Source: a virus | Virus record (IMG/VR): IMGVR_UViG_3300035670_000119 | Span: 21,906 to 85,905 of that record | DNA length: 64,000 bases | Strand: one strand, 5' to 3' | In this document: piece after piece, positions 1,356-63,712 of the stretch | Layout: each line of letters opens with the position of its first letter | Numbering within the stretch: the first letter of the stretch is position 1 | The notes under the pieces: generated by a model | The model's database searches: none | Told to the model about the DNA's origin: nothing | Seen by the model: the letters and a program-made list of their open reading frames with translations, nothing else | Made by a program: the position numbers and the translations under genes

Positions 1356-3583
1356 CAGAATTTAAACCCGCCAAACATAGATGTAAACTCATTTAAGATT
1401 TGCTGCCCGCTTTTTGATTTAGCGTTAGCAGTTTCGTCATCATCTTCCAACATTGTAAGATAGCTAGATGTTTTACTTGTTGAACTGGAAGTTGTTGTGG
1501 TTTTAGGCTGTGTAGATGTTGTGTCAAATAGGCTTTCGGCAGCTCCCATTACTTCAAAAGGATCCTTGCTCTTTAAGCTGGTCCAAATACTGTCTTCAGT
1601 GTCCACACCTTTTTGCCCTTGGCTTAATAAAGCCATCTCACTTCTATTGACATCGGGCATAAAATTAGTATAAAACTCATCCTCGGTCCCGGCAAAGCCA
1701 GCGTTTTTGAACACGTTATATAGAGCCGTTTCTCCTTCTGATTCAACTGTCTTTACGTCTTCCGGACGCTGAATATACTCGATTCCAAGCAACTCTTGCG
1801 TTGGTGTTTTATTTTGTTTGTTTAATTCTTCAATTGCTGTCCTGATTGATTCTGCCGGAACCGTTCTGATTGTCTGCATCAGCATGTTTTTGACATCTTC
1901 AACGGGCTGACCGGTGTCTTCGATGCCGTATTTTTTCAGTGTTTCTTTCCAGGCTTCTGGGGTTTTTGCTGGATCTAATCCCCCGAGCAAAGAATCCGCT
2001 AACTGCTCTGGGGTCACAAACTCCAAGAACACATTAGAACCGTAATTTTTCTCTGCTTCGGCCAGGGTTGGCGCAAGATCCTTCTCAAGGAAATCAATCA
2101 AGTCTTTGTTCGTCAGTGTATCCGCGGCCGCATCATACTGCTTATCTTTACCAATCAGTTGATAATGAAGCTGCGCGAATTGGTCTTTGTTGTTTAGGTC
2201 AACACCATACTGATAAGCAAGCTGCTCCCAGCTCATTCCATTAGAAACTATTGCCCCTGGGTTTTTCTTTGCGTTATCCCAATCTTTGGCCACACTATCT
2301 TTTTGTTCTTGGTATAGCGCACTCTTTTGATCGTTTCCTGTAGGATCAAAGTAAAACTCTGGGTCAAAATAACGGATGTTACCAGTTTTAGCAAGATCCC
2401 GCACAAAAGTTTGTGCTTTTAAGGTGCCAAGTTCTTTTAGTTTGTTTGAAACAGTTTGTGTTTGCAAGATATTCTGTTCGCTATCTGTTACATCTAAATA
2501 GCTTATAAACTCTGACATTGAACGCGAAGTGTCAAAGCGCGGCTTCAAATAATCGTTGATGTATCGGGTTGCAAACTCTTTATCAAGTTCGTATTGCTTC
2601 TTTGCGTCTAAGGGGTCTTCTATTTTCTCAAGCGTTTCATATTTCTTTGTTAATGTATTGTCAAACCATTCTTGCCAATTGTATTGTACATTGCTTCCCA
2701 TGCCCAAGGCATTTTTCAGTCCTTCAGTTACTTTCTCTTCCGCCTTACTTCCTCCCATAATATTCAAATAACCTCCAATACCGGTATCTCCCAAAATAGA
2801 ATTGGACAGGTTGGACGTTAAATTGTATATCTCCGAGAACTCTGGCATTCGACTCATGAAATCCATTTGAGTCTCTTTCCACTTTGCCTTGTTTAATTCA
2901 TTAAGCGTTTCTTTTAACGTGTCTGAGACGAGTGCGTTAAACCGAAGCTCACCCTGTTCGTCAACATATTTTTGTGCTTGGCGCTCAACCAGGGAGGTTT
3001 CCCCTGGGCCTTTAGCCAATAACGTGTCCCGCATTATCTGCTGCTCACGGTCAGTGGGAACCCATCTTTCTTGGTATTGTTTGGTGGCCGCCAATTCTTG
3101 CGCGGCATTCGCTCGCATGCCTGAGTGCTTACCGACTGTCGTGTAATGATATTGAAGATAAGTGTCTGGATCATATCGCTCAGTAATATCGATATCGGGC
3201 AATGTTTGGCCGCCAAATTTTACCGCAGATCCAGCCTCGTTCCATTTTTGCAAAACTTCTGGAACTTGTTTGGAATAATAACCAGGATCAAAGTCGCCAA
3301 CCGGAGGCTTGGCACCCTTAGACGTATCCCATTTTGTAGATACGTTTTTTGCCTTGTAGAAATCAGTAATTGTATTTAAAGCTTCCGAAGGTACATATTT
3401 TTTAATGACGTCTTCTCCGTATTTTTTCTGTATAGTTGCCAATAAATCTTTGTAGGTACCAGGGGGAGCAGCGTTGAAACGTTGGGCAATATCTGCAGCC
3501 ACCTCATTTTCTTCTTGATTATCTGTCTCGATGTACTTTAAAGCAGGCTGTCCATTGACAACTGTGTACGTAAAAGAAGCCAT
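1355..3583 (-). CDS. Large hypothetical (probable virion) protein, 742 aa
   Basis: Long ORF in the late operon; repeated FDPxYY/FY motif; overlaps its neighbours by 1 nt. Confidence 0.8.
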   Translation of the reverse strand: MASFTYTVVNGQPALKYIETDNQEENEVAADIAQRFNAAPPGTYKDLLATIQKKYGEDVIKKYVPSEALNTITDFYKAKNVSTKWDTSKGAKPPVGDFDPGYYSKQVPEVLQKWNEAGSAVKFGGQTLPDIDITERYDPDTYLQYHYTTVGKHSGMRANAAQELAATKQYQERWVPTDREQQIMRDTLLAKGPGETSLVERQAQKYVDEQGELRFNALVSDTLKETLNELNKAKWKETQMDFMSRMPEFSEIYNLTSNLSNSILGDTGIGGYLNIMGGSKAEEKVTEGLKNALGMGSNVQYNWQEWFDNTLTKKYETLEKIEDPLDAKKQYELDKEFATRYINDYLKPRFDTSRSMSEFISYLDVTDSEQNILQTQTVSNKLKELGTLKAQTFVRDLAKTGNIRYFDPEFYFDPTGNDQKSALYQEQKDSVAKDWDNAKKNPGAIVSNGMSWEQLAYQYGVDLNNKDQFAQLHYQLIGKDKQYDAAADTLTNKDLIDFLEKDLAPTLAEAEKNYGSNVFLEFVTPEQLADSLLGGLDPAKTPEAWKETLKKYGIEDTGQPVEDVKNMLMQTIRTVPAESIRTAIEELNKQNKTPTQELLGIEYIQRPEDVKTVESEGETALYNVFKNAGFAGTEDEFYTNFMPDVNRSEMALLSQGQKGVDTEDSIWTSLKSKDPFEVMGAAESLFDTTSTQPKTTTTSSSTSKTSSYLTMLEDDDETANAKSKSGQQILNEFTSMFGGFKF

Positions 3584-3939
3584 CAGGAAGCAAGGTAGTG
3601 ATCTTTAAAGCTAGACAGGTTAATGATTTCATTTTCCATCCAGGCTTTTATTTTAGCCAATTTTTCTTCTGTGAAATACTCTTGTTGTTTAAACCATTCC
3701 TCCATATTGCTTGATGCTTTGTTTGCGTTACAGCGCCGACAGCAAGGAAGCAGGTTGTTTCGGTTAGAAGAACCAGACTTAAAGCGAGGTACTACGTGAT
3801 CCAGGCTTGTTGCCGGTTCTTGACAATAGCCACATTTATGATCCCAGGCTTTATATATCTCTTCTCTGAAACGTTTTTTTGCAAGTTTTGGCTTTAATTC
3901 AACTAGCAGGGCAAGGGGCTCGTGCTGGCTGCAAAACAT
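3583..3939 (-). CDS. HNH endonuclease
   Basis: CGYC...LDHVVPRFKSG...NLLPCCRRCNANK. Confidence 0.9.
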   Translation of the reverse strand: MFCSQHEPLALLVELKPKLAKKRFREEIYKAWDHKCGYCQEPATSLDHVVPRFKSGSSNRNNLLPCCRRCNANKASSNMEEWFKQQEYFTEEKLAKIKAWMENEIINLSSFKDHYLAS

Positions 3940-36011: not shown

Positions 36012-36184
36012 CGGTTAACTCTTCCCCTGGTGAGAGCCAGGGGTTTATTTAGCCCTCAAAGCTATGCTTCTAGACGCATAAACGCATTCTGTACAGTCTG
36101 TACATCGCGCGCGCGTACTTTTGGGCTACATCTGCTGCCTGTTCAGGCAGGACAGTCGCGCCGCAAGGGATCTCAGCGATTAAT

Positions 36185-36209
36185 CGTCAAGCTGGACGTT
36201 AAACGTAGC
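36185..36209 (+). promoter_or_regulatory. Pseudoknot leader motif copy 1 (divergent)
   Basis: CGTC-AAGCTG-GACG-TTAAAC-GTAGC. Confidence 0.55.
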
Positions 36210-36232
36210 CTTGTCCTACCTAATTCAACACC

Positions 36233-39606: not shown

Positions 39607-39834
39607 TTATCCGACTGTATTACGTACATCAGGTGTAAACCTTTGCATCTGATCTAACAACCTAAGCTCTGCTTGTTTGTTTTGTATCGGAATGCTTTCA
39701 TTTCTTATAACAGATGTTAAGAAGTCCATTACTTTATCTTGAGGTGGCATAGAACCATGTGCCTTCATGTATTCTTGTTGCCACCCTTGAAGGAATGGAC
39801 TATTGGCCATTGCATATCTACCAGCTAATAACAT
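39607..39834 (-). CDS. Counter-oriented hypothetical protein
   Basis: 75-aa ORF filling the gap between two leader motifs. Confidence 0.6.
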   Translation of the reverse strand: MLLAGRYAMANSPFLQGWQQEYMKAHGSMPPQDKVMDFLTSVIRNESIPIQNKQAELRLLDQMQRFTPDVRNTVG

Positions 39835-39863
39835 GGACCTGAGTATGTCCTTAAACTACTCAG
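39835..39863 (+). promoter_or_regulatory. Pseudoknot leader motif copy 2
   Basis: GGAC-CTGAGTAT-GTCC-TTAAAC-TACTCAG. Confidence 0.7.
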
Positions 39864-39902
39864 TCCATCATACTCATCATCAACCTCAACTCCACATCAA
39901 CC

Positions 39903-40178
39903 ATGACCTACCCCGAAATCGACTGGAAGAAGAACGAGTACAAGCAATTGGAAGAAGCTTTGGACATACTCAAAGCTGTCATCGAACGTGAATCAAAGCG
40001 TCATCAAATGGATGAGCACTTAGTTCCAGGAGATAATGATATTGTCCAAGAAGCAATCGGTTTGCTTGAAGAGATCATTGACTATGACCCGACACCTAAC
40101 GAGCCTGGTGAACCTCCCATGACAATGGACGAAATGCACAGTGCTGCATGGAAAGAACACCAGGAGATGCACCGGTAA
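39903..40178 (+). CDS. Acidic hypothetical protein
   Basis: 91-aa ORF after leader. Confidence 0.7.
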   Translation: MTYPEIDWKKNEYKQLEEALDILKAVIERESKRHQMDEHLVPGDNDIVQEAIGLLEEIIDYDPTPNEPGEPPMTMDEMHSAAWKEHQEMHR

Positions 40179-40329: not shown

Positions 40330-40542
40330 ATGACTACTCCCAACACTCCACGTATACCTGACTCTCTTGACATGCAAAGACTTCAAGCTATGCAACTTGT
40401 TGCAAAGATGAAGGAATCAGCAGAGAGAAATGGTATTGGATTCATTGGTGGATTCATTGCTCCGAATGGAGAGAAGTTTGTCATGACCAACATGACAGAC
40501 GAAGATGACATCAATGCACTCATGCCGGAGGATCTTAAGTGA
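40330..40542 (+). CDS. Hypothetical protein
   Basis: ATG in CAACCC context. Confidence 0.65.
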   Translation: MTTPNTPRIPDSLDMQRLQAMQLVAKMKESAERNGIGFIGGFIAPNGEKFVMTNMTDEDDINALMPEDLK

Positions 40543-40874
40543 ATCAATCTCATCCCGTTATTCCAACCGAGTACCTGCTTGATGCTTGGCATCAGCAACA
40601 TCAACGATACAGAAAGAGCTTCAAAGAAATTCTTATTGAAGCTGCCCAATGGGGAGCTGATACAGAATTAGAAGAATGTTGTAAGCTATTCGAATCTAAT
40701 TCTGTATGTGGCACCAAGTTTCAGCGGAGATCTTCTGTTCGAGATCTACGTGAAAAGCGTAGACCTTCACCCAAGCAAAAGACATTGACAGTGTCAATCA
40801 CTGGTACTGAAGATGAACTTGAACAACTCATTCGCAAACTCAAACATGAACAACAAATCTCGATTGAACTTTGA
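40539..40874 (+). CDS. AAQWGAD-ELE-CC family paralog
   Basis: HPVIP...W...AAQWGADTELEECC. Confidence 0.7.
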   Translation: MNQSHPVIPTEYLLDAWHQQHQRYRKSFKEILIEAAQWGADTELEECCKLFESNSVCGTKFQRRSSVRDLREKRRPSPKQKTLTVSITGTEDELEQLIRKLKHEQQISIEL

Positions 40875-41753: not shown

Positions 41754-41781
41754 CGTCCTGGACATGACGTTAAACTGTCTA
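41754..41781 (+). promoter_or_regulatory. Pseudoknot leader motif copy 3
   Basis: CGTC-CTGGACAT-GACG-TTAAAC-TGTCTA. Confidence 0.7.
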
Positions 41782-41803
41782 TTTCATTTACTCATTTAAC
41801 CCA

Positions 41804-42100
41804 ATGGAAATCAATTCTCCAACGCCACCTTTAGATCTTGTTAATGATTGGATGACGCATTGGTATGACGACAATCAAACCGATGATACCCAAGAAATGT
41901 ACATTGCAACTAAGGCTGCAATGTGGGGTGCTATCTGGGGTGCTACTAATGCGTTAGAAACAGCTATCAAAGACACATCTCCTGTTCACTGGCGTGTAGC
42001 CGGTGGTGCAGAAGATGGTCAGCAAATAGTACGTGTTATTGATCTAATGGAATGGCTTGCACAATTCCGTAAAGAATATGAGGAGAAGATCAATGGCTGA
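41804..42100 (+). CDS. Divergent AAxWG family paralog
   Basis: TPPLDLVNDW...YIATKAAMWGA. Confidence 0.65.
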   Translation: MEINSPTPPLDLVNDWMTHWYDDNQTDDTQEMYIATKAAMWGAIWGATNALETAIKDTSPVHWRVAGGAEDGQQIVRVIDLMEWLAQFRKEYEEKING

Positions 42101-42347
42101 ACTTTCACCAGTAGCAAAATCAATTTTGAAAGCTGCTTATAAAGCAACACGAATTCCTGATTGGCAGAATAAGTTTTATTCCAGCTATGCTGCTGCTGTG
42201 CTTCGTACTGCCGTAGAAAAAGTGATTTCAAAGGAATGGCCAACTATTGAAGACTACAACGAATACGATCAAGGCTTTGCTGCTGCACACATCAACTATC
42301 GAAATCAACTTTTAGATATTGCTGATGAACTTGAAAGCTTGACTTGA
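42093..42347 (+). CDS. ELSP-AAVLR-LLxIAxELE family paralog
   Basis: MAELSPVAKSILKAAY...AAAVLR...LLDIADELE. Confidence 0.7.
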   Translation: MAELSPVAKSILKAAYKATRIPDWQNKFYSSYAAAVLRTAVEKVISKEWPTIEDYNEYDQGFAAAHINYRNQLLDIADELESLT

Positions 42348-42352
42348 TCAAC

Positions 42353-42380
42353 CGTCCTGGATATGACGTTAAACTGTCCA
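42353..42380 (+). promoter_or_regulatory. Pseudoknot leader motif copy 4
   Basis: CGTC-CTGGATAT-GACG-TTAAAC-TGTCCA. Confidence 0.7.
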
Positions 42381-42402
42381 TTCCCTTTACCTACACTACA
42401 CC

Positions 42403-44179: not shown

Positions 44180-44398
44180 ATGACTGACTACACCGATGAT
44201 CAGTTACTTGCTATGGCCATGGCAAACCTTGGCGAATACATTCACGAAAACTCACCACACTATGTATTGATTGAAGAAGATTCTCGTAACGAGGATGACT
44301 ACGACACATGGGAGTACGGCACTGAGCCGTTACCTCAAGACCACACTTGGCACTCCACATCAATTGATGTAGAGGTAAGTCCAAGTGAGGCCGACTAG
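44180..44398 (+). CDS. Very acidic small protein
   Basis: D/E-rich; stop lies inside the tRNA 5' end. Confidence 0.6.
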   Translation: MTDYTDDQLLAMAMANLGEYIHENSPHYVLIEEDSRNEDDYDTWEYGTEPLPQDHTWHSTSIDVEVSPSEAD

Positions 44399-44464
44399 CC
44401 CAACGGCAGAGGCAAGCGACTTAAAATCGCTCAAGTCCCGGTTCGAATCCGGGGTCGGCTACCA
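44389..44464 (+). tRNA. tRNA-Leu(TAA), short variable loop, CCA encoded
   Basis: GGCCGAC/GTCGGCT acceptor, AGCGA-CTTAAAA-TCGCT, CCCGG-TTCGAAT-CCGGG, ACCA. Confidence 0.9.
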
Positions 44465-45230: not shown

Positions 45231-45560
45231 ATGATCAGTTCATTGCAATCAGAAACAGCAACAGATGTAATGCAACTTATTGCAGATTGTATTCCAGATT
45301 CCGAATGGTATCGGGTACGCAATGCAATTGTTGAACGCATTGTTGATAACATGCCAGGTGAAATTTTATTCAGGTTGACAAACAGCCATGATGACTTTGA
45401 TTTGGCTGAGATTATTCTTAAAACTCATTACGAAGAGTCTCCAAATGTTGAATTAATTGCCGATGCATTTAAGCTCATTGGCTCTGAGCAAACAGCAGAT
45501 CTTCTCGATTCATTGAACATTCAAGAAACAGATGGCATTTCAAAAGGCAATCCTTCCTGA
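45231..45560 (+). CDS. Acidic hypothetical protein
   Basis: ORF track frame, ATG after hairpin. Confidence 0.65.
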   Translation: MISSLQSETATDVMQLIADCIPDSEWYRVRNAIVERIVDNMPGEILFRLTNSHDDFDLAEIILKTHYEESPNVELIADAFKLIGSEQTADLLDSLNIQETDGISKGNPS

Positions 45561-45903
45561 CTGCCCTGAATGTAAACAACCTGGACTCAGAGTTATTGAA
45601 TCAAGGAAGACTGATCTATCTACAAGACGCAGAAAGAAATGTGATTACTGTGGCTACAAGGTTACAACCCATGAAGTTACAGCAGACTTCTTTGAAGAAG
45701 CCAAGCAGAATCAAATTCTGGTTAAGCAAATGCGTAATCTTCTTGGTGCAGACCTACCCATTCCTGGGGTAGAACCACCCCAGATGGGGGTGGAAATCAA
45801 ATGTGACGAATGCGTGCACAACAATGGCAAGCGTTGTGCATTTGACTTTCCAGAGTACGGCACAGATGAGTCGTATGATTGCAATCAGTATTCACTACCA
45901 TGA
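45532..45903 (+). CDS. NrdR-like zinc-ribbon protein (no ATP cone)
   Basis: CPEC...RVIESR....RRRKKCDYCGYKVTTHE plus a second Cys cluster. Confidence 0.75.
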   Translation: MAFQKAILPDCPECKQPGLRVIESRKTDLSTRRRKKCDYCGYKVTTHEVTADFFEEAKQNQILVKQMRNLLGADLPIPGVEPPQMGVEIKCDECVHNNGKRCAFDFPEYGTDESYDCNQYSLP

Positions 45904-46247
45904 CACAAGAGCATTCAATCACGCCAGCGCCAGAGCTAATTACAGAATGGATTGAAAATTATTTTGGTTGCGTTGTTACCGGCGCACTTTCTGATCTTGA
46001 AACTGCTATTGCTACACAAGCTGCCCAATGGGGTGCTGACCAGGAACTTGAATCATGTTGCGCATGGGTTGATTGGAAATGCTCAGGCAATAACGCTCGC
46101 CAGCTTCGAGAAGATCGACGCTCCAAACCGCTGAGCTTGAAGGAACAATCCATTGCCTTGCTTGACTTGATCCAAGAAAGCAAGAAGCCTTGGCAGCTTG
46201 AAGACCTAGACGTAGTGCGCCGCGCCCTTGAACAACTACCTGATTAA
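45900..46247 (+). CDS. AAQWGADQELE-CC family paralog
   Basis: MTQEHSITPAPELITEW...AAQWGADQELESCC...SLKEQ...RRALE. Confidence 0.75.
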   Translation: MTQEHSITPAPELITEWIENYFGCVVTGALSDLETAIATQAAQWGADQELESCCAWVDWKCSGNNARQLREDRRSKPLSLKEQSIALLDLIQESKKPWQLEDLDVVRRALEQLPD

Positions 46248-46551: not shown

Positions 46552-46748
46552 AAGATCTTAGACCTTTTATTGCTGCAGCAATTCTTTTCTTTGGGTTTTT
46601 GCTTTTGTTTTATGGAATCTTTTTCACTGACAAACCAGAGGCAACAAACTCAGCTAAGTTCCAGGTAATTGACACCTATCAAGGTTGTGAGGTAATCAGG
46701 TACACTGATCCAACACAACGCTGGTACTACTTCCTTAAATGCTCATGA
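46548..46748 (+). CDS. Small membrane protein
   Basis: Hydrophobic helix then FQVIDTYQGCEVIRY. Confidence 0.65.
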   Translation: MKDLRPFIAAAILFFGFLLLFYGIFFTDKPEATNSAKFQVIDTYQGCEVIRYTDPTQRWYYFLKCS

Positions 46749-47398
46749 GTGACGTCAAGCTGATCTGGGTAACACCCAATGCAGAAGAGATGATCGTGAA
46801 AATGGCACGCGTAAGTGCGCCATCAAACCAAGACAACATGGAGACTGCGCCTAAGTTATTGCGTTATCTGATTAAACACAAGCACTGGTCACCGTTTGAG
46901 ATGGCCAACATGTGTGTTGAAATCAACACAACACGTGGTATTTCACCACAGATCTTGAGGCATCGTTCATTTAGTTTCCAGGAATTCAGTCTGCGTTATG
47001 CAGATGTCTCAGAGGTGGGCAGTATTGTAATGCCGCATCTTCGTAGCCAGGACTACAAGAACAGGCAAAACTCCAACGACGATCTCAAGGAACGTCTTGG
47101 TGGTGAGAAGCTTGCTCACTTCTACAGACGCATGTCTACTATCCTGGAAGACTCCAAGCATCTGTACCAGGAGATGATCAGTGAAGGTGTAGCAAAAGAG
47201 TCAGCGCGTTTTGTACTGCCTCTTGCAGCACCTACCCGTCTTTATATGAACGGAACTCTTCGTTCATTTATTCATTACCTACAAGTTCGTTGTGACCCAA
47301 GCACCCAAGCAGAGCACCGAGAAATTGCAGAAGCAATCAAAGAAATCTTTTGCAAACAATTCCCTATCATTGGAGAAGCAGCCTTTACAAGAGCCTGA
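46745..47398 (+). CDS. thyX: FAD-dependent thymidylate synthase
   Basis: HWSPFE, QILRHRSFSFQEFSLRY, ESARFVLP, TQAEHR. Confidence 0.95.
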   Translation: MSDVKLIWVTPNAEEMIVKMARVSAPSNQDNMETAPKLLRYLIKHKHWSPFEMANMCVEINTTRGISPQILRHRSFSFQEFSLRYADVSEVGSIVMPHLRSQDYKNRQNSNDDLKERLGGEKLAHFYRRMSTILEDSKHLYQEMISEGVAKESARFVLPLAAPTRLYMNGTLRSFIHYLQVRCDPSTQAEHREIAEAIKEIFCKQFPIIGEAAFTRA

Positions 47399-47399
47399 T

Positions 47400-47445
47400 G
47401 AACTAAAGCAATGGCGATCAGAAGGTCGCGGTGCTTTGTTCTTTT
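47400..47445 (+). terminator. Long hairpin plus T-run after thyX
   Basis: GAAC.AAAGCA..GCGATC-AGAA-GGTCGC..TGCTTT-GTTC-TTTT. Confidence 0.45.
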
Positions 47446-47475
47446 AACTTAGTGACTTGCTCTAATCACCTTCCA

Positions 47476-47844
47476 ATGACACAACAACATCCCATCACCC
47501 CACCGCCGGAGCTGGTGCAGCAGTGGGTGAATCAGTTTGCGGGCAATCAGGAATGTATGCCTGAGCAAATTTACATTGCAAGAGCCGCCGCCCAATGGGG
47601 CGCCGACCAGGAGCTGGAGGCGTGTTGTGAGTGGTTACAAGATCCTGATCTGAATGTGGACACTTACAAACTTCGCGCCGCCCGCCGCCCAAAGCAGTCG
47701 TCGTTGAAGGAGCAATCTATTGCCTTGCTTGACTTGATTCAAGGAAGCAAGAAGACTTGGCAGCTTGAAGACCTAGACGTGGTTCGCCGCGCTCTTGAAT
47801 CAATCCCCGACCATACAAGTGAGGAACGTTACGATGTCGGATAA
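47476..47844 (+). CDS. AAQWGADQELEACC family paralog
   Basis: MTQQHPITPPPELVQQW...AAQWGADQELEACC. Confidence 0.75.
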   Translation: MTQQHPITPPPELVQQWVNQFAGNQECMPEQIYIARAAAQWGADQELEACCEWLQDPDLNVDTYKLRAARRPKQSSLKEQSIALLDLIQGSKKTWQLEDLDVVRRALESIPDHTSEERYDVG

Positions 47845-48043
47845 GCAATTCATTATGAAGAATTTGGCCCTTGACACGGAAAAATCGTTTTCGGAAAACA
47901 CCGCTCCCAAGTGGCTTACCTGCGAAAACACTGTACCCGGATCAACTATGGACGATAGATGGTTCTGGGAAAAGCATGTACTCACACTTGAAGTCGGAGA
48001 GTCAATAGATACCGACTTTCGACGCATTACAAGAACGGCTTGA
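47834..48043 (+). CDS. Hypothetical protein
   Basis: GAGG SD-like sequence before ATG 47834. Confidence 0.6.
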   Translation: MSDKQFIMKNLALDTEKSFSENTAPKWLTCENTVPGSTMDDRWFWEKHVLTLEVGESIDTDFRRITRTA

Positions 48044-48084
48044 CTGATGTGTCACTAACAACCCTCGTAGTGGAACCCACTTCT

Positions 48085-48336
48085 ATGCCTGAACTTTCAC
48101 CCACCGCGCAGGCAGTCCTTACTGCGTACAACCAGCGGGAATTGGCAGCTAAGCGAACAACCGCACTCGCCGCCGCCCTGCGAGCTGCTGCAGATCAGGT
48201 GGTGCCGAATGAACCAGCTCCGACAGGTATGAGGCCAGCAGGAGATGTGTACTCCAGCCGAGAGATACGACGTGGACAGCGACAAGAAACACGAAGCCAG
48301 CTCCTCGCCATCGCTGCCGAACTAGAAAACCAATGA
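48085..48336 (+). CDS. ELSP-AALRAAADQVVP family paralog
   Basis: MPELSPTAQAVL...LRAAADQVVP...LLAIAAELE. Confidence 0.75.
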   Translation: MPELSPTAQAVLTAYNQRELAAKRTTALAAALRAAADQVVPNEPAPTGMRPAGDVYSSREIRRGQRQETRSQLLAIAAELENQ

Positions 48337-48566
48337 CTGAACTTTCTTCCGCTGCAACTGCAGTTTTAAATGCCTACATGAATAACTGTGGCTGGCTCGA
48401 TGGTCCGTTTGAAAAAGACTATCGCTGTGCCGCTGCCGTTCTTCGTGCTGCTGCGGATCAGGTGGTTCCAGCGCCACGTCTTCCGTATGATTCTTGCTGT
48501 GATGTAAATGCATCAGCAATACGCGCCGAACTTTTAGCCATTGCTATTGAACTTGAAACCCAGTAG
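48333..48566 (+). CDS. ELS-AVLRAAADQVVP family paralog
   Basis: MTELSSAATAVL...LRAAADQVVP...LLAIAIELE. Confidence 0.75.
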   Translation: MTELSSAATAVLNAYMNNCGWLDGPFEKDYRCAAAVLRAAADQVVPAPRLPYDSCCDVNASAIRAELLAIAIELETQ

Positions 48567-48585
48567 TCATTACCACTAATCACCC

Positions 48586-49008
48586 ATGACACAAGAACAT
48601 CCCATTGTTCCACCGAAACTGTTAGTAGAAGAATGGGTCAATGACTACTGGGCAAAGCGTCCGCAGGAGGGGTACAACCGGTATATTGCTACCCGTGCAG
48701 CTCAATGGGGCAAAGATCAGGGCAAGGAAGAAATCAAGCGCGAACGGCAAGAAGCCGCTGATCAAGAGCTGGAGGCGTGCTGCCAGGTGCTGTATGACAG
48801 GTACGACAGTGTTCGCCATGCAACTGGGTTTCCTGGAAGCGATATGAGCGATTGGCTCCGCGCCGTTCGCCGCCCCAAGCCGCCGAGCTTGAAGGAGCAG
48901 GCGCTTGAAATTGTGAGGGGAACTCCAGCAAACAGCGCCGGACTTTATTCCTATGAACACATAGAAATTATCCGCCGCGCCCTAGAACAACTCCCCGACA
49001 ACGAGTAG
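48586..49008 (+). CDS. AAQWG...ADQELEACC family paralog
   Basis: MTQEHPIVPPKLLVEEW...AAQWG(insert)ADQELEACC...SLKEQ...RRALE. Confidence 0.75.
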   Translation: MTQEHPIVPPKLLVEEWVNDYWAKRPQEGYNRYIATRAAQWGKDQGKEEIKRERQEAADQELEACCQVLYDRYDSVRHATGFPGSDMSDWLRAVRRPKPPSLKEQALEIVRGTPANSAGLYSYEHIEIIRRALEQLPDNE

Positions 49009-49022
49009 TCGCTTCCACTTCT

Positions 49023-49100
49023 ATGCCTGAAATTCTCTTTGCGATTTGCCTCACTATCGTTTGCCTTGCTGTCCTGGACTTTTGCCAGCGGCCCTCGTAG
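49023..49100 (+). CDS. 25-aa hydrophobic mini-protein MPEILFAICLTIVCLAVLDFCQRPS
   Basis: Manual translation; exactly bounded by two junction sites. Confidence 0.45.
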   Translation: MPEILFAICLTIVCLAVLDFCQRPS

Positions 49101-49222
49101 TCACCTTCCCTAAAAGGTAGCAACACTTTGTTTTTGCAATTCTTTGATGGCATGCTTGGACTCAACATCCGAGCGTGTCATCTTTTTCTTTTTGTTAACC
49201 AGGTAAACGATCAATGCTTTGT

Positions 49223-49375
49223 TCATTTGATTTGTCCTCCGGTGACGTAAGGGAAGTAACAGACGTTACGATACTTCAAACAGAGCCAGGGGCGATGTGC
49301 TAAATTCCACCAGGCCCTGTCTGCCTTGGCTTGATCTTCTTGGTTGTATTTGCAACCGCGATACGTTAACGTCAT
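49223..49375 (-). CDS. DUF4278-like cyanobacterial small protein
   Basis: MTLTYRGCKY...LKYRNVCY duplicated motif; TATACT upstream. Confidence 0.7.
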   Translation of the reverse strand: MTLTYRGCKYNQEDQAKADRAWWNLAHRPWLCLKYRNVCYFPYVTGGQIK

Positions 49376-49451
49376 TGCTTTAGTATCTATTGATACGAAA
49401 AGTATATGACGATTGATGTACATGATGTCGTTCACTCTGTAACACAACACC

Positions 49452-49718
49452 ATGAACATGATTGCATCTTTTAAGGTACCTGTTGCTTTTTATTTGGATT
49501 ATGAACAACAACAAGAAGCAAGGAGAGCAATCAATACGTATTATCTTGGCGAAGCTGAGTGCAATTATTTAGATCCAGGAACAAAAGAGTATCTTCCAAA
49601 ACATCCCGAAAAAGAAACTAAAGAGTTTAAAGAAGCTAGTAAAAATGTGTCTTGCGAGTGGATTGAGTATGTAACTGTTGGACTTGACTCGAATGGTTGT
49701 CTATCTCTTATTAGCTAA
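49452..49718 (+). CDS. Hypothetical protein
   Basis: CAACACC-ATG. Confidence 0.65.
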   Translation: MNMIASFKVPVAFYLDYEQQQEARRAINTYYLGEAECNYLDPGTKEYLPKHPEKETKEFKEASKNVSCEWIEYVTVGLDSNGCLSLIS

Positions 49719-49738
49719 ACATTCCCGAACGGGAAGAT

Positions 49739-49766
49739 GGACCTGAGCACGTCCTTAAACTACTCA
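49739..49766 (+). promoter_or_regulatory. Pseudoknot leader motif copy 5
   Basis: GGAC-CTGAGCAC-GTCC-TTAAAC-TACTCA. Confidence 0.7.
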
Positions 49767-49801
49767 TCAGTTTTCTTTATCATTCAGCTCAACTCAACAC
49801 C

Positions 49802-50566
49802 ATGAAACTTCTCAAGTTTTCCACCGGCAACGGCAAGCTCAAGAACCGACTCATCTTTAACCTGCCTGCTGGTTATGCATGCCCGCACGCTGGTGTGTGC
49901 AAGACCTTTGCTGATCGCACCACAGGTCAGATCACTGACTTGCCTCAGTACACAGGTGTCACAGCAGACCTTGAGTACCGCTGCTTTGCTGCCATGGCAG
50001 AGACCCGTCCCACCGTACGGGAAGCACGCTGGCACAACTGGGATCTACTGCGTGAAACCATTCACATGAATGGGAACCAAGCTGTGCTGTTGCGTGATCT
50101 GATCGACCTATCACTCTTGATGCAGCCAGCTAAAGAACTCATCCGTATCCATGAGAGCGGTGATTTCTGGACCGAGAACTATATGAAGGCGTGGATCATG
50201 GTTGCACAAAGTCGTCCACAACAGAAGTTCTATGCATACACCAAGTCTCTTGGTATGTGGTACAACTTGCGTGACATCATTCCTGACAACTTTTATCTCA
50301 CCGCATCACACGGCGGTACGCTCGATTACCTGATCGACAAGTATCCTGATGTGTACCAGCGGGTTGCTCACGTTGTCTATACAGAAGAGCAGGCGGCAGA
50401 GCTTGGACTCAGCATCGATCATGATGACAGCCATTGCTTAGGTAACAAGCCGTTTGCACTCCTGGTCCATGGATCCCAACGTGCTGGGTCTGATGCCATG
50501 GCTGCTATCACACAACGCAAGAAAGATGGCAAGTTTGTAGGCTACGGTAAGACAAACAAGAAATAA
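49802..50566 (+). CDS. Gp88-like (radical-SAM-related) phage protein
   Basis: GNGKL...FNLPAGYACPHAGVC...CFA...IRIHESGDF...FYAYTKS. Confidence 0.75.
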   Translation: MKLLKFSTGNGKLKNRLIFNLPAGYACPHAGVCKTFADRTTGQITDLPQYTGVTADLEYRCFAAMAETRPTVREARWHNWDLLRETIHMNGNQAVLLRDLIDLSLLMQPAKELIRIHESGDFWTENYMKAWIMVAQSRPQQKFYAYTKSLGMWYNLRDIIPDNFYLTASHGGTLDYLIDKYPDVYQRVAHVVYTEEQAAELGLSIDHDDSHCLGNKPFALLVHGSQRAGSDAMAAITQRKKDGKFVGYGKTNKK

Positions 50567-52920: not shown

Positions 52921-52940
52921 TTATCTCCAAATTAGGAGTT

Positions 52941-52968
52941 CGTCCTAAGCATGACGTTAAACTGCTTT
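52941..52968 (+). promoter_or_regulatory. Pseudoknot leader motif copy 6
   Basis: CGTC-CTAAGCAT-GACG-TTAAAC-TGCTT. Confidence 0.7.
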
Positions 52969-52988
52969 AACACTACCCATCTGATCTG

Positions 52989-54061: not shown

Positions 54062-54066
54062 TCTCT

Positions 54067-54093
54067 CGTCCTCTGGTACGACGTTAAACTGCC
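54067..54093 (+). promoter_or_regulatory. Pseudoknot leader motif copy 7
   Basis: CGTC-CTCTGGTAC-GACG-TTAAAC-TGCC. Confidence 0.65.
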
Positions 54094-54115
54094 TGTCCTT
54101 GACTACGAAACAACC

Positions 54116-63640: not shown

Positions 63641-63712
63641 TCGAGATGACAGGGATCGAACCTGTGACCCTCTGCTCCCAAAGCAGATGCGCTACCGCTG
63701 CGCTACATCTCG
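63641..63712 (-). tRNA. tRNA-Pro(TGG), CCA not encoded
   Basis: CGAGATG/CATCTCG-A acceptor, TCTGC-TTTGGGA-GCAGA, ACAGG-TTCGATC-CCTGT. Confidence 0.92.

Follow-up and report, generated by a model that had tools for sequence, protein, structure and literature searches.

TAGT-N7-ACTW linkers as probable points of small-gene exchange in lake cyanophages

The promoter-early stem-loops (PeSLs) of T4-type phages are mobile regulatory cassettes through which modules are shuffled; in the portions of these studies drawn on here, each PeSL joins a sigma-70-like early promoter to a terminator stem-loop, and mini-circles were shown for them (Arbiol et al. 2010, PMC2839356; Comeau et al. 2014, PMC4122927). 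The present analysis concerns a 64-kb window, which is the whole stretch of DNA analysed and part of a single 85.9-kb viral record (IMGVR_UViG_3300035670_000119). Blastn and annotation comparison relate this record to S-EIVl, a Synechococcus phage that comes from a high-arctic lake. The window carries an array of small genes whose borders are marked by a recurring element, TAGT-N7-ACTW, here called the linker. From comparison of sequences, it appears that these sites mark points where small genes are swapped between lake cyanophages. It is proposed that the linkers are translational elements that lack a Shine–Dalgarno (SD) sequence and double as short boundary sequences for general recombination, with no dedicated recombinase, a reading to which a probability of about 0.6 is assigned.

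Integron cassettes are promoterless single-gene units in one orientation, bounded by attC sites and served by the IntI integrase, and attC is a folding imperfect palindrome of tens of nucleotides with conserved outer core sites, at which crossover takes place at one set position so that the site remains on one side of its cassette. Classical tyrosine recombinases need spacer identity in both partners, and their core site consists of inverted arms of about 9–13 bp around a 6–8-bp spacer. Coupled junctions in phage operons take the form of ATGA and TAATG overlaps, at which termination–reinitiation occurs. In modular theory, short conserved boundary sequences lie at mosaic junctions, where homologous recombination could join unrelated neighbours; as far as the cited portion of the source goes, random illegitimate recombination followed by selection has been favoured largely since boundary sequences went unfound at most junctions (Pope et al. 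2011, PMC3029335).

The motif was counted as distinct 100-nt contexts in about 160 loci from IMG/VR, 80 taken around homologues of gp88 and 80 around homologues of family A, one of the small-protein families of the array. TAGT-N7-ACTW occurred in 122 distinct plus-strand contexts versus 8–26 for spacers of 3–6 and 8–12 nt, a spacer-length control that is internal to this biased sample, and one-base variants of either arm gave 10–30 contexts. These counts argue that the motif is real across the phage group. The differing spacers that had been reported for the window recur on this larger scale, with 39 distinct 7-mers across the loci; CATTACC (18), CACCTTC (15), CAACATC (13), CGCTTCC (11), CCGATCA (10), TCTACAC (9) and CAGACCC (7) dominate. 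The linker takes a form of 12–24 nt, running from TAG (sometimes TAA) through a pyrimidine, a C-rich and G-poor 7-mer, ACTW and a further 0–12 nt to ATG.

A survey made independently of the motif covered 969 distinct junctions between plus-strand open reading frames (ORFs) in related loci. Among its 139 gaps of 10–22 nt, the stop was TAG in 68, and TAGT-N7-ACTW was present in 40 and TARY-N7-ACTW in 53; the TAG-Y-N7-ACTW linker is the typical form of short gaps. TAG was the stop in just 7 of the 391 junctions at which the ORFs overlap and in 7 of the 125 gaps that measure 1–9 nt, and in the genome of the window it terminates 4/53 early ORFs (plus strand, 35200–64000) and 4/35 late ORFs (minus strand, 1–35100). 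Gap lengths are quantised at 12, 14, 18 and 19 nt, and the 12-nt linkers end in ..ACTAATG, where TAA overlaps ATG. A collection-wide scan with the pattern TARY-N7-ACTAATCACCYATG returned at least 119 stretches in viral contigs. From prokaryote genomes (596 Gb) it returned 12; each of these lacks both a phage-type 7-mer and a family A start, and they are presumed to be chance matches. In the titles and abstracts of literature on cyanophages, phage mosaicism and boundary sequences, and PeSLs, no description of TAGT-N7-ACTW was found, the S-EIV1 full texts and supplements being outside the scope of this search.

The commonest linker type (CATTACCACTAATCACC, with at most two mismatches) was found in 38 distinct contexts, 37 of which carry TAR at positions -4 to -2 with one pyrimidine between. 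In 23 of the 37, this TAR closes, in frame, an ORF that is 36 codons or longer, and most of the others have a second stop slightly upstream. Information content stays close to its maximum from the stop's T through ATG and past it, and is about zero six bases upstream. The near-constant TAR and this sharp drop together indicate that the stop belongs to the conserved unit. The family A start ATGACACAA follows this CATTACC linker in 32 of the 38 contexts, and five other gene starts follow it in the remaining 6. A tally of 112 contexts, in which the right arm ACTA was fixed by the search pattern, held 17 different four-residue starts among the matches listed; the left arm in these listed matches read TAGT in 78, TAAC in 18, TAGC in 13 and TAAT in 3. 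The left arm varies in the manner of a stop codon plus pyrimidine against an unchanged ACTA on the right, so there is no co-variation between the arms.

A further property was seen in 240 distinct linkers, each followed by an ORF of 40 codons or more, in the 279 loci of the larger comparison and the window, a sample enriched for one linker type by pattern search. Stops in all three frames between TAG and ATGN are carried by 115 of them, these being TAG, TAA in ACTAA and TGA in ATGA. Such linkers would therefore terminate the upstream ORF in any frame.

Reassortment at the linkers was assessed by clustering the 18-nt flanks, left and right, of 256 TARY-N7-ACTW contexts, with the following results for individual 7-mers.

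CATTACC: 37 contexts, 20 left clusters, 6 right clusters
CACCTTC: 20 contexts, 11 left clusters, 13 right clusters
CGCTTCC: 13 contexts, 7 left clusters, 6 right clusters
CAACATC: 13 contexts, 2 left clusters, 12 right clusters
CAGACCC: 12 contexts, 5 left clusters, 10 right clusters
CCGATCA: 11 contexts, 8 left clusters, 10 right clusters

An identical 15-mer is found between many unrelated left and right neighbours. Furthermore, the 7-mer classes pair freely with the right modules ACTA, ACTTCT, ACTAATCACCC, ACTAACCACC and ACTAAACACN, each of which runs into ATG. A short boundary sequence is thus present at junctions whose flanks are otherwise unrelated, which is the arrangement expected under the boundary-sequence model.

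Breakpoints between genomes were located by blastn in about 279 loci, the set also used for later linker counts, with matches of at least 82% identity. Matches to the window start at 47450 (locus L129) and 48079 (L093), and they stop at 48568–48569 (L145, L011, L213, L222 and others), at 48577 (L108), at 48580–48585 and at 48605. The metagenome data consisted of Logan contigs from four runs, no single one of which covers the whole region; uncovered parts and depth as such are uninformative on absence in these contigs. In this mixture of relatives, one contig join connects 48078 to 48576, which brings the left of site 2 onto the right of site 3 and omits the gene pair B1–B2; joins also occur inside paralogs among these mixed relatives, for example in a B1/B2 hybrid that runs from 48320 to 48552. 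Similarity between genomes therefore breaks at or inside the linkers, which was the test set beforehand in the original prediction. The cassette-like array described there was likewise borne out: its units are gene-sized, promoterless and on the same strand, the block is absent from close relatives, and breaks coincide with the sites. Together with the 15-mer between unrelated neighbours, the breaks at linkers uphold this description.

The array lies within the plus-strand early/replication arm of the genome. On its right is a GP88-family gene at 49802–50566 (Pfam PF17338, E 1.5e-40), followed by a family-A DNA polymerase, a name taken from the annotation of the matching S-EIVl gene. The features of the array and its two borders are as follows.

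46739..47398, plus strand: thyX, a flavin-dependent thymidylate synthase (ORF; blastn to cyanophage thyX/thymidylate synthase; S-EIVl annotation); conserved left anchor of the variable slot
47409..47454, minus strand: degenerate duplicate of the 3′ end of the minus-strand gene at 49110..49226 (reverse complement ..LKEQSTATF*, read by eye); left edge of the insertion
47450..47475, plus strand: site 1 linker, TAGT-GACTTGC-TCTA-ATCACCTTCCA, then ATG; the TAG is not an upstream stop, and L129 similarity starts exactly at 47450
47476..47844, plus strand: family A copy A2, 122 aa, phrog_32006 (E 1.4e-28), 'unknown function'
47834..48043, plus strand: ORF x, 69 aa, overlapping the end of A2
48059..48084, plus strand: end of a remnant gene (CAA CCC TCG TAG = QPS*) and site 2 linker, TAGT-GGAACCC-ACTT-CT, then ATG
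48085..48336, plus strand: family B copy B1, 83 aa
48333..48566, plus strand: family B copy B2, 77 aa; ATGA overlap with B1; ends in the TAG of site 3
48564..48585, plus strand: site 3 linker, TAG-T-CATTACC-ACTA-ATCACCC, then ATG; the commonest linker type, at which many blastn matches stop (48568–48585)
48586..49008, plus strand: family A copy A3, 140 aa, phrog_32006 (E 2.8e-24); ends in the TAG of site 4
49006..49022, plus strand: site 4 linker, TAG-T-CGCTTCC-ACTT-CT, then ATG
49023..49100, plus strand: hydrophobic 25-codon ORF ending QRPS*; its L129 counterpart has 60 codons and ends SRPS*
49098..49112, plus strand: site 5, TAGT-CACCTTC, curtailed on meeting the convergent gene's stop (CTA on the plus strand); right edge of the insertion
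49110..49226, minus strand: gene of 38 aa, right anchor of the slot; holds a plus-strand terminator-like hairpin at 49146–49192

The block 47455–49113, which comprises A2, x, B1, B2, A3 and the short ORF, is missing in the close relatives L003, L004/5, L006 and L007. In L003, L004, L006 and L007, whose gp88 genes are 86–93% identical to that of the window, the sequence downstream of thyX is followed at once by a small convergent gene, entered at its 3′ end, and this gene is a homologue of window positions 49110–49226. The window instead has the order decayed duplicate (47409–47454), block and intact minus-strand gene, with site 1 straddling the left junction of the insertion and site 5 its right junction. 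This comparison argues that 47455–49113 is an insertion in a hypervariable thyX–gp88 slot. Relatives with both anchors yielded 47 distinct thyX–gp88 intervals of 201–3468 nt, with 0–3 recognised A or B genes in each. The minus-strand block lies 145–175 nt past thyX in 17 of these 47 versus 1825 nt in the window. S-EIVl has one 112-aa gene between thyX and its gp88 homologue, where the gap in the window is 2.4 kb; this gene was considered as a member of family A and discounted, at just 19% identity. The terminator-like hairpin at 49146–49192 consists of 15 pairs followed by TTTTTCTTTT and lies within the minus-strand ORF, and a partial copy of it is found at 47414–47429, in the duplicated remnant after thyX.

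The five sites on which the original prediction was built are present with the letters then given: TAGTGACTTGCTCTA at 47450, TAGTGGAACCCACTT at 48068, TAGTCATTACCACTA at 48564, TAGTCGCTTCCACTT at 49006 and TAGTCACCTTCCCTA at 49098. As had also been claimed, the TAG closes the preceding ORF in three sites, numbers 3, 4 and 5 (ORFs 48333–48566, 48586–49008 and 49023–49100), and an ATG follows sites 1–4 at distances of 11, 2, 7 and 2 nt. The strict motif fits three of the five, the right arm being TCTA at site 1 and CCTA at site 5. On both strands of the window, the strict motif has 8 matches versus 3.14 ± 2.07 expected (2 of 100 shuffles reach 8), two of the eight being one palindromic site counted on each strand; the relaxed pattern TAGT-N8-CTW has 17 matches versus 11.9 expected, a number reached by 8 of 100 shuffles. 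These counts are near chance, so the window alone supports the motif weakly, clustering aside: the five sites are the sole plus-strand matches to the relaxed pattern in the early region 35200–64000.

Individual sites recur in other loci in forms that bear on their identity. Site 1 is a genuine linker variant; L231 carries the same N7 in both TAGT-GACTTGC-ACTA and CAGT-GACTTGC-TCTA, each ahead of a family A gene. At site 2, the L093 similarity starts within the site itself, and gene ends of the ..QPS* or ..RPS* type precede TAGT in other loci. The site 4 linker precedes full family B genes in L010, L101, L106 and L119, and metagenome contigs connect 49030 to a full B gene. The 25-codon ORF that follows site 4 in the window, singled out earlier as a unit of its own, is real as an ORF, and in L129 a 60-codon ORF occupies the place between the same two linkers; it is either a short cassette or the decayed remainder of one. 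The complete form of site 5, TAGT-CACCTTC-ACTA, abuts the end of the same minus-strand gene in L126 and L112.

The flanks within the window, which had been described as reassorting, consist for the most part of 5′ ends that belong to paralogous genes. Family A genes come after sites 1 and 3, and starts of the family B type (MPE..) after sites 2 and 4, so that part of the flank pattern is simply paralogy. Duplicated genes that brought their upstream sequences along might then explain the sites altogether, and the window-wide motif count, barely above chance, would suit this explanation. However, the same linkers stand before at least five other gene starts (in 6 of 38 contexts, with 17 starts in 112 contexts among the matches listed) and follow many unrelated genes, and the spacing preference is about 5- to 15-fold. 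Paralogy by itself is accordingly a very improbable account, which these contexts already contradict.

The original prediction proposed an integron-, shufflon- or tyrosine-recombinase-like mechanism for the array, which the present analysis does not support. A dedicated site-specific mechanism at TAGT-N7-ACTW, with an enzyme of an unrecognised family or one supplied by the host, would fit the match between module borders and sites to within a few nucleotides, the 15-mer as the sole common element between many unrelated flanks, the sharp preference for 7-nt spacing, and cassettes that are promoterless and uniformly oriented, with all units on the plus strand as in an integron. However, PF00589 had no match in the 85.9-kb record or in five other linker-bearing records (71–87 kb; CheckV completeness 88–100%), with positive controls at 14/14. 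Similarly, PF00239 had no match in five records, the window's own included, and GIY-YIG had none in the records searched. An HNH gene is present in 5/5 records; in the window it lies at 3583–3939, abutting a 742-aa ORF, and its surroundings of large genes are presumed to be the packaging region.

The architecture of the sites also speaks against such a mechanism. They are 15 nt long with 4-nt arms, of which the left can differ at two of its four positions (TAGT to TAAC) and the right does not change in step, and in contrast with attC their RNA folds no better than shuffled sequence. By their C-rich spacer and stop codon, all sites are co-oriented; no inverted arrangement was found among the loci, and no recombinase accompanies them, which is unlike a shufflon (Rci/sfx), where segments flip between inverted repeats and a recombinase gene is adjacent. 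The N7 tracks the left gene (CAACATC), the right gene (CATTACC) or neither (CCGATCA), so there is no single crossover position; correspondingly, the blastn ends are scattered over 48568–48605. With 39 spacers and a composition that is strand-specific, a dedicated mechanism of this kind is judged highly improbable.

The array does share with integrons the layout of promoterless single-gene units, arrayed in one orientation between recurring sites. It differs in having no integrase, in its unfolded 15-nt sites with no fixed crossover, and in the overlap of these sites with a stop codon and a translational leader. The integron-type interpretation was therefore half right: the array is cassette-like and exchange occurs at the sites, but integron-like machinery is lacking, and exchange is most likely the work of ordinary recombination, an integron-like enzyme taking no part. 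A variant, in which the linkers would be targets of an unrecognised nuclease making breaks at TAG-Y-N7-ACTW, or of a new-family recombinase of phage or host, that exchanges cassettes exactly from stop to start, is likewise given little chance of being correct. If true, it would constitute a phage counterpart of the integron that works with no IntI-type enzyme, and it could combine with the frozen constant blocks of family A, described below, for combinatorial diversity.

Several properties of the linkers are those expected of an element that acts in the mRNA. Abundant C and scarce G characterise all 7-mers, and the remainder of the linker, on the coding strand alone, which points to constraint on the mRNA. 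In the 20 nt before early genes, the G fraction is 0.14 versus 0.229 genome-wide and SD-like words precede 7/53 genes, and family A starts are G-poor from -24 to +28. For the late genes, the upstream G fraction is 0.20, with SD-like words before 7/35. Predicted RNA folds of the five sites range from 0 to -4.5 kcal/mol (z -1.3 to +0.55), no better than those of shuffles. A hairpin reading of the sites was tried and rejected, there being no stable fold and no arm co-variation. Amber read-through was also rejected: the tRNA genes are tRNA-Leu (taa) at 44389–44464 on the plus strand and tRNA-Pro (tgg) at 63641–63712 on the minus strand only, and linker lengths are not consistently in frame.

Transcription was considered as an alternative role. 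No sigma-70-like site was found in 46600–49900 versus 3.5 expected, and site 5 is closely followed by a plus-strand terminator-like hairpin; the cassettes therefore probably share one transcript that is started upstream. The linkers could instead be promoters, one per cassette, for a phage or modified host RNA polymerase, as promoters of T7-like single-subunit polymerases resemble elements of about 20 nt with a ..CACTA.. core, and the linkers have such a length, such a core and strict conservation. PF00940 was unmatched in the record, but this was a weak search in which the control genomes were unmatched too, and an 880-aa ORF reads as a primase–helicase, by eye only. The lack of a sigma-70-like site, the built-in stop and the quantised distance to ATG suit translation better, and a promoter role is considered highly unlikely.

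Translational coupling, which the original prediction had named as a possible alternative to recombination, fits the anatomy of the linkers better: the stop lies within about 25 nt of the start, there is no SD sequence and there is little structure. As in coupled phage junctions, stop and start are within a few to about 20 nt of each other. However, ordinary coupled junctions are not conserved as portable types between unrelated gene pairs, and coupling alone does not explain the reassortment. The recurrence of the same linkers at many borders in many phages suggests that they serve also as ready-made joints for general recombination.

In the proposed mechanism, which combines SD-less translation with general recombination, the linker on the mRNA would end the upstream reading frame and would then offer an unstructured, SD-less stretch for starting the next gene, by termination–reinitiation or by initiation on open RNA. 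As few linker types recur at many borders in many co-circulating phages, they would come to be short conserved boundary sequences. Homology- or microhomology-dependent general recombination, within linkers and within the conserved ends of paralogs, would then swap, insert and delete whole genes cleanly. Under this mechanism, 47455–49113 would be one imported array between thyX and the small convergent gene, and a dedicated recombinase would take no part.

The same anatomy might be explained by an mRNA operator, with each linker read by a phage or host factor such as a RegA-like repressor or an endoribonuclease; conservation would then be purely functional, and module borders would lie at the linkers only since a break anywhere else would harm a gene. 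The location between stop and start agrees with this, as do discrete 7-mers and an ACTW conserved letter-for-letter, beyond the needs of an unstructured spacer, and linkers that stand with no plus-strand gene following, such as those that run up to a pseudoknot-like element, to a terminator-like hairpin or to the end of a convergent gene. However, at least 7 common 7-mer classes, alike only in being C-rich, would need a very tolerant reader, and no candidate factor was identified. Furthermore, random breaks followed by selection leave a 15-mer between 8 left and 10 right unrelated flanks unexplained, so that exchange at the edges would be needed in any case. The operator explanation is regarded as possible but doubtful.

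Several points weigh against the combination of SD-less translation and general recombination that is favoured here. A length of 15–22 nt is short for efficient homologous recombination, and among the replication-region proteins (10 Pfam, 8 PHROG) no annealing or RecA-like protein was found, only SSB, DUF5895 and Gp157. The letter-for-letter constancy of the 7-mers between unrelated flanks could mean that a factor reads the 7-mer, and the strong bias to TAG rather than TAA, like the unvarying ACTW, lacks an established explanation under plain coupling. Because the loci were picked via family A and gp88, the sample is biased toward such arrays, and linker frequencies in it do not carry over to cyanophages in general. 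The contig joins, taken from mixed populations at 90% likeness, represent arrangements in relatives and not events. A breakpoint histogram was given no weight, as the arms were used to select contexts and edge peaks are partly forced. Finally, the translational and recombinational roles of the linkers are both inferred, from sequence alone.

Among described systems, the PeSLs appear nearest in behaviour. In both cases, as far as the cited portions of the PeSL studies extend, a short regulatory motif is repeated among small non-essential genes of unknown function in hyperplastic regions, serves as the point of exchange between unrelated sequences, and bounds indels and replacements in close relatives, with no dedicated recombinase invoked; the linkers of the window likewise border insertions and replacements in such a region. 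By comparison with PeSLs as presented there, the linkers have no promoter-like site or hairpin, are several times shorter at 12–24 nt, include the upstream stop codon and appear to act in translation, not transcription. The best reading by analogy is that the linker is a small, translation-level counterpart of the T4 PeSL and not itself a PeSL.

The boundary-sequence model, in the cited portion of its source, dealt with sequences that mostly went unfound, whereas here linkers in discrete types are identifiable at 53/139 gaps of 10–22 nt. A large group of uncultured lake cyanophages thus shows boundary sequences plainly, as few discrete types that make up a large share of short junctions between small accessory genes and of which both neighbours reassort. 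The linkers may therefore offer a concrete system for telling the boundary-sequence model from the illegitimate-recombination model. They may also represent a compact, portable stop-linker-start element and a candidate for SD-less translation in cyanobacteria.

The array is built largely from two protein families, both of which have further copies elsewhere in the window.

45900..46247, plus strand: family A copy A1, outside the block, with no TAGT linker
40539..40874, plus strand: family A copy A4, GTG start (E 8.3e-14)
41804..42100, plus strand: family A copy A5, distant (E 1.3e-3 for the N-terminal part only)
42093..42347, plus strand: family B copy B3

Family A (MTQ[QE]HPI..AAQWGADQELEACC..RRPKPPSLKEQ..IRRALEQLPD) has five copies in the window, and phrog_32006, 'unknown function', is its only PHROG match. 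Family B (M[PT]ELS..LRAAADQVVP..LLAIA.ELE.Q) has three, at 48085, 48333 and 42093. No Pfam match was found for family A, family B or ORF x; ORF x also lacks a PHROG match and has no blastn match of at least 82% identity in the approximately 279 loci. The B1–B2 pair is retained as a unit in L093 and L108 by blastn. AlphaFold (AF2) models show five helices for family A, with a predicted local distance difference test (pLDDT) score of 81.6 from a 48-sequence alignment, and three helices for family B (pLDDT 83.8 from a 28-sequence alignment). Both models are predicted small helical bundles, and Foldseek returned no PDB match for either at E <= 0.001.

Alignment of the window copies with 45 homologues revealed that family A is a block mosaic, in which four constant blocks are separated by unalignable variable stretches. 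The constant blocks are conserved to the codon level, for example Ser AGC at 93% versus 27% in the background and Leu TTG at 93% versus 15%. Across 47 columns of conserved residues, codon homozygosity is 0.65 versus 0.34 expected, and in the metagenome contigs word depth over the constant blocks is 20–100 times that over the variable parts. This retention of codons, together with the word depth of the blocks, fits frequent recombination through the constant blocks. Just upstream of a family A copy, positions 45532–45903 encode a protein of 123 aa that carries an NrdR-like zinc ribbon (PF22811, E 1.8e-9).

Other recurring elements precede early genes. CGTC-N8-GACG-TTAAAC (or GGAC-N8-GTCC-TTAAAC) lies about 25–45 nt before the ATG of several of them, and the letters of its stem co-change; the element occurs at 36183–36232, 41754–41803, 42353–42402, 49737–49760, 52939–52988 and 54066–54115, and in other loci it is often found directly after a TAGT-N7-ACTA linker. 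Rfam returned just one match in total, a below-threshold, chance match to a miRNA. A second recurring leader element contains GGTGTAAGTCC and is found upstream of three ATGs (38599, 41130 and 44820), in each case no more than 50 nt away. The regions upstream of gp88 (49734–49802) and of the ORF at 39903 (39830–39899) are 77% identical over 70 nt.

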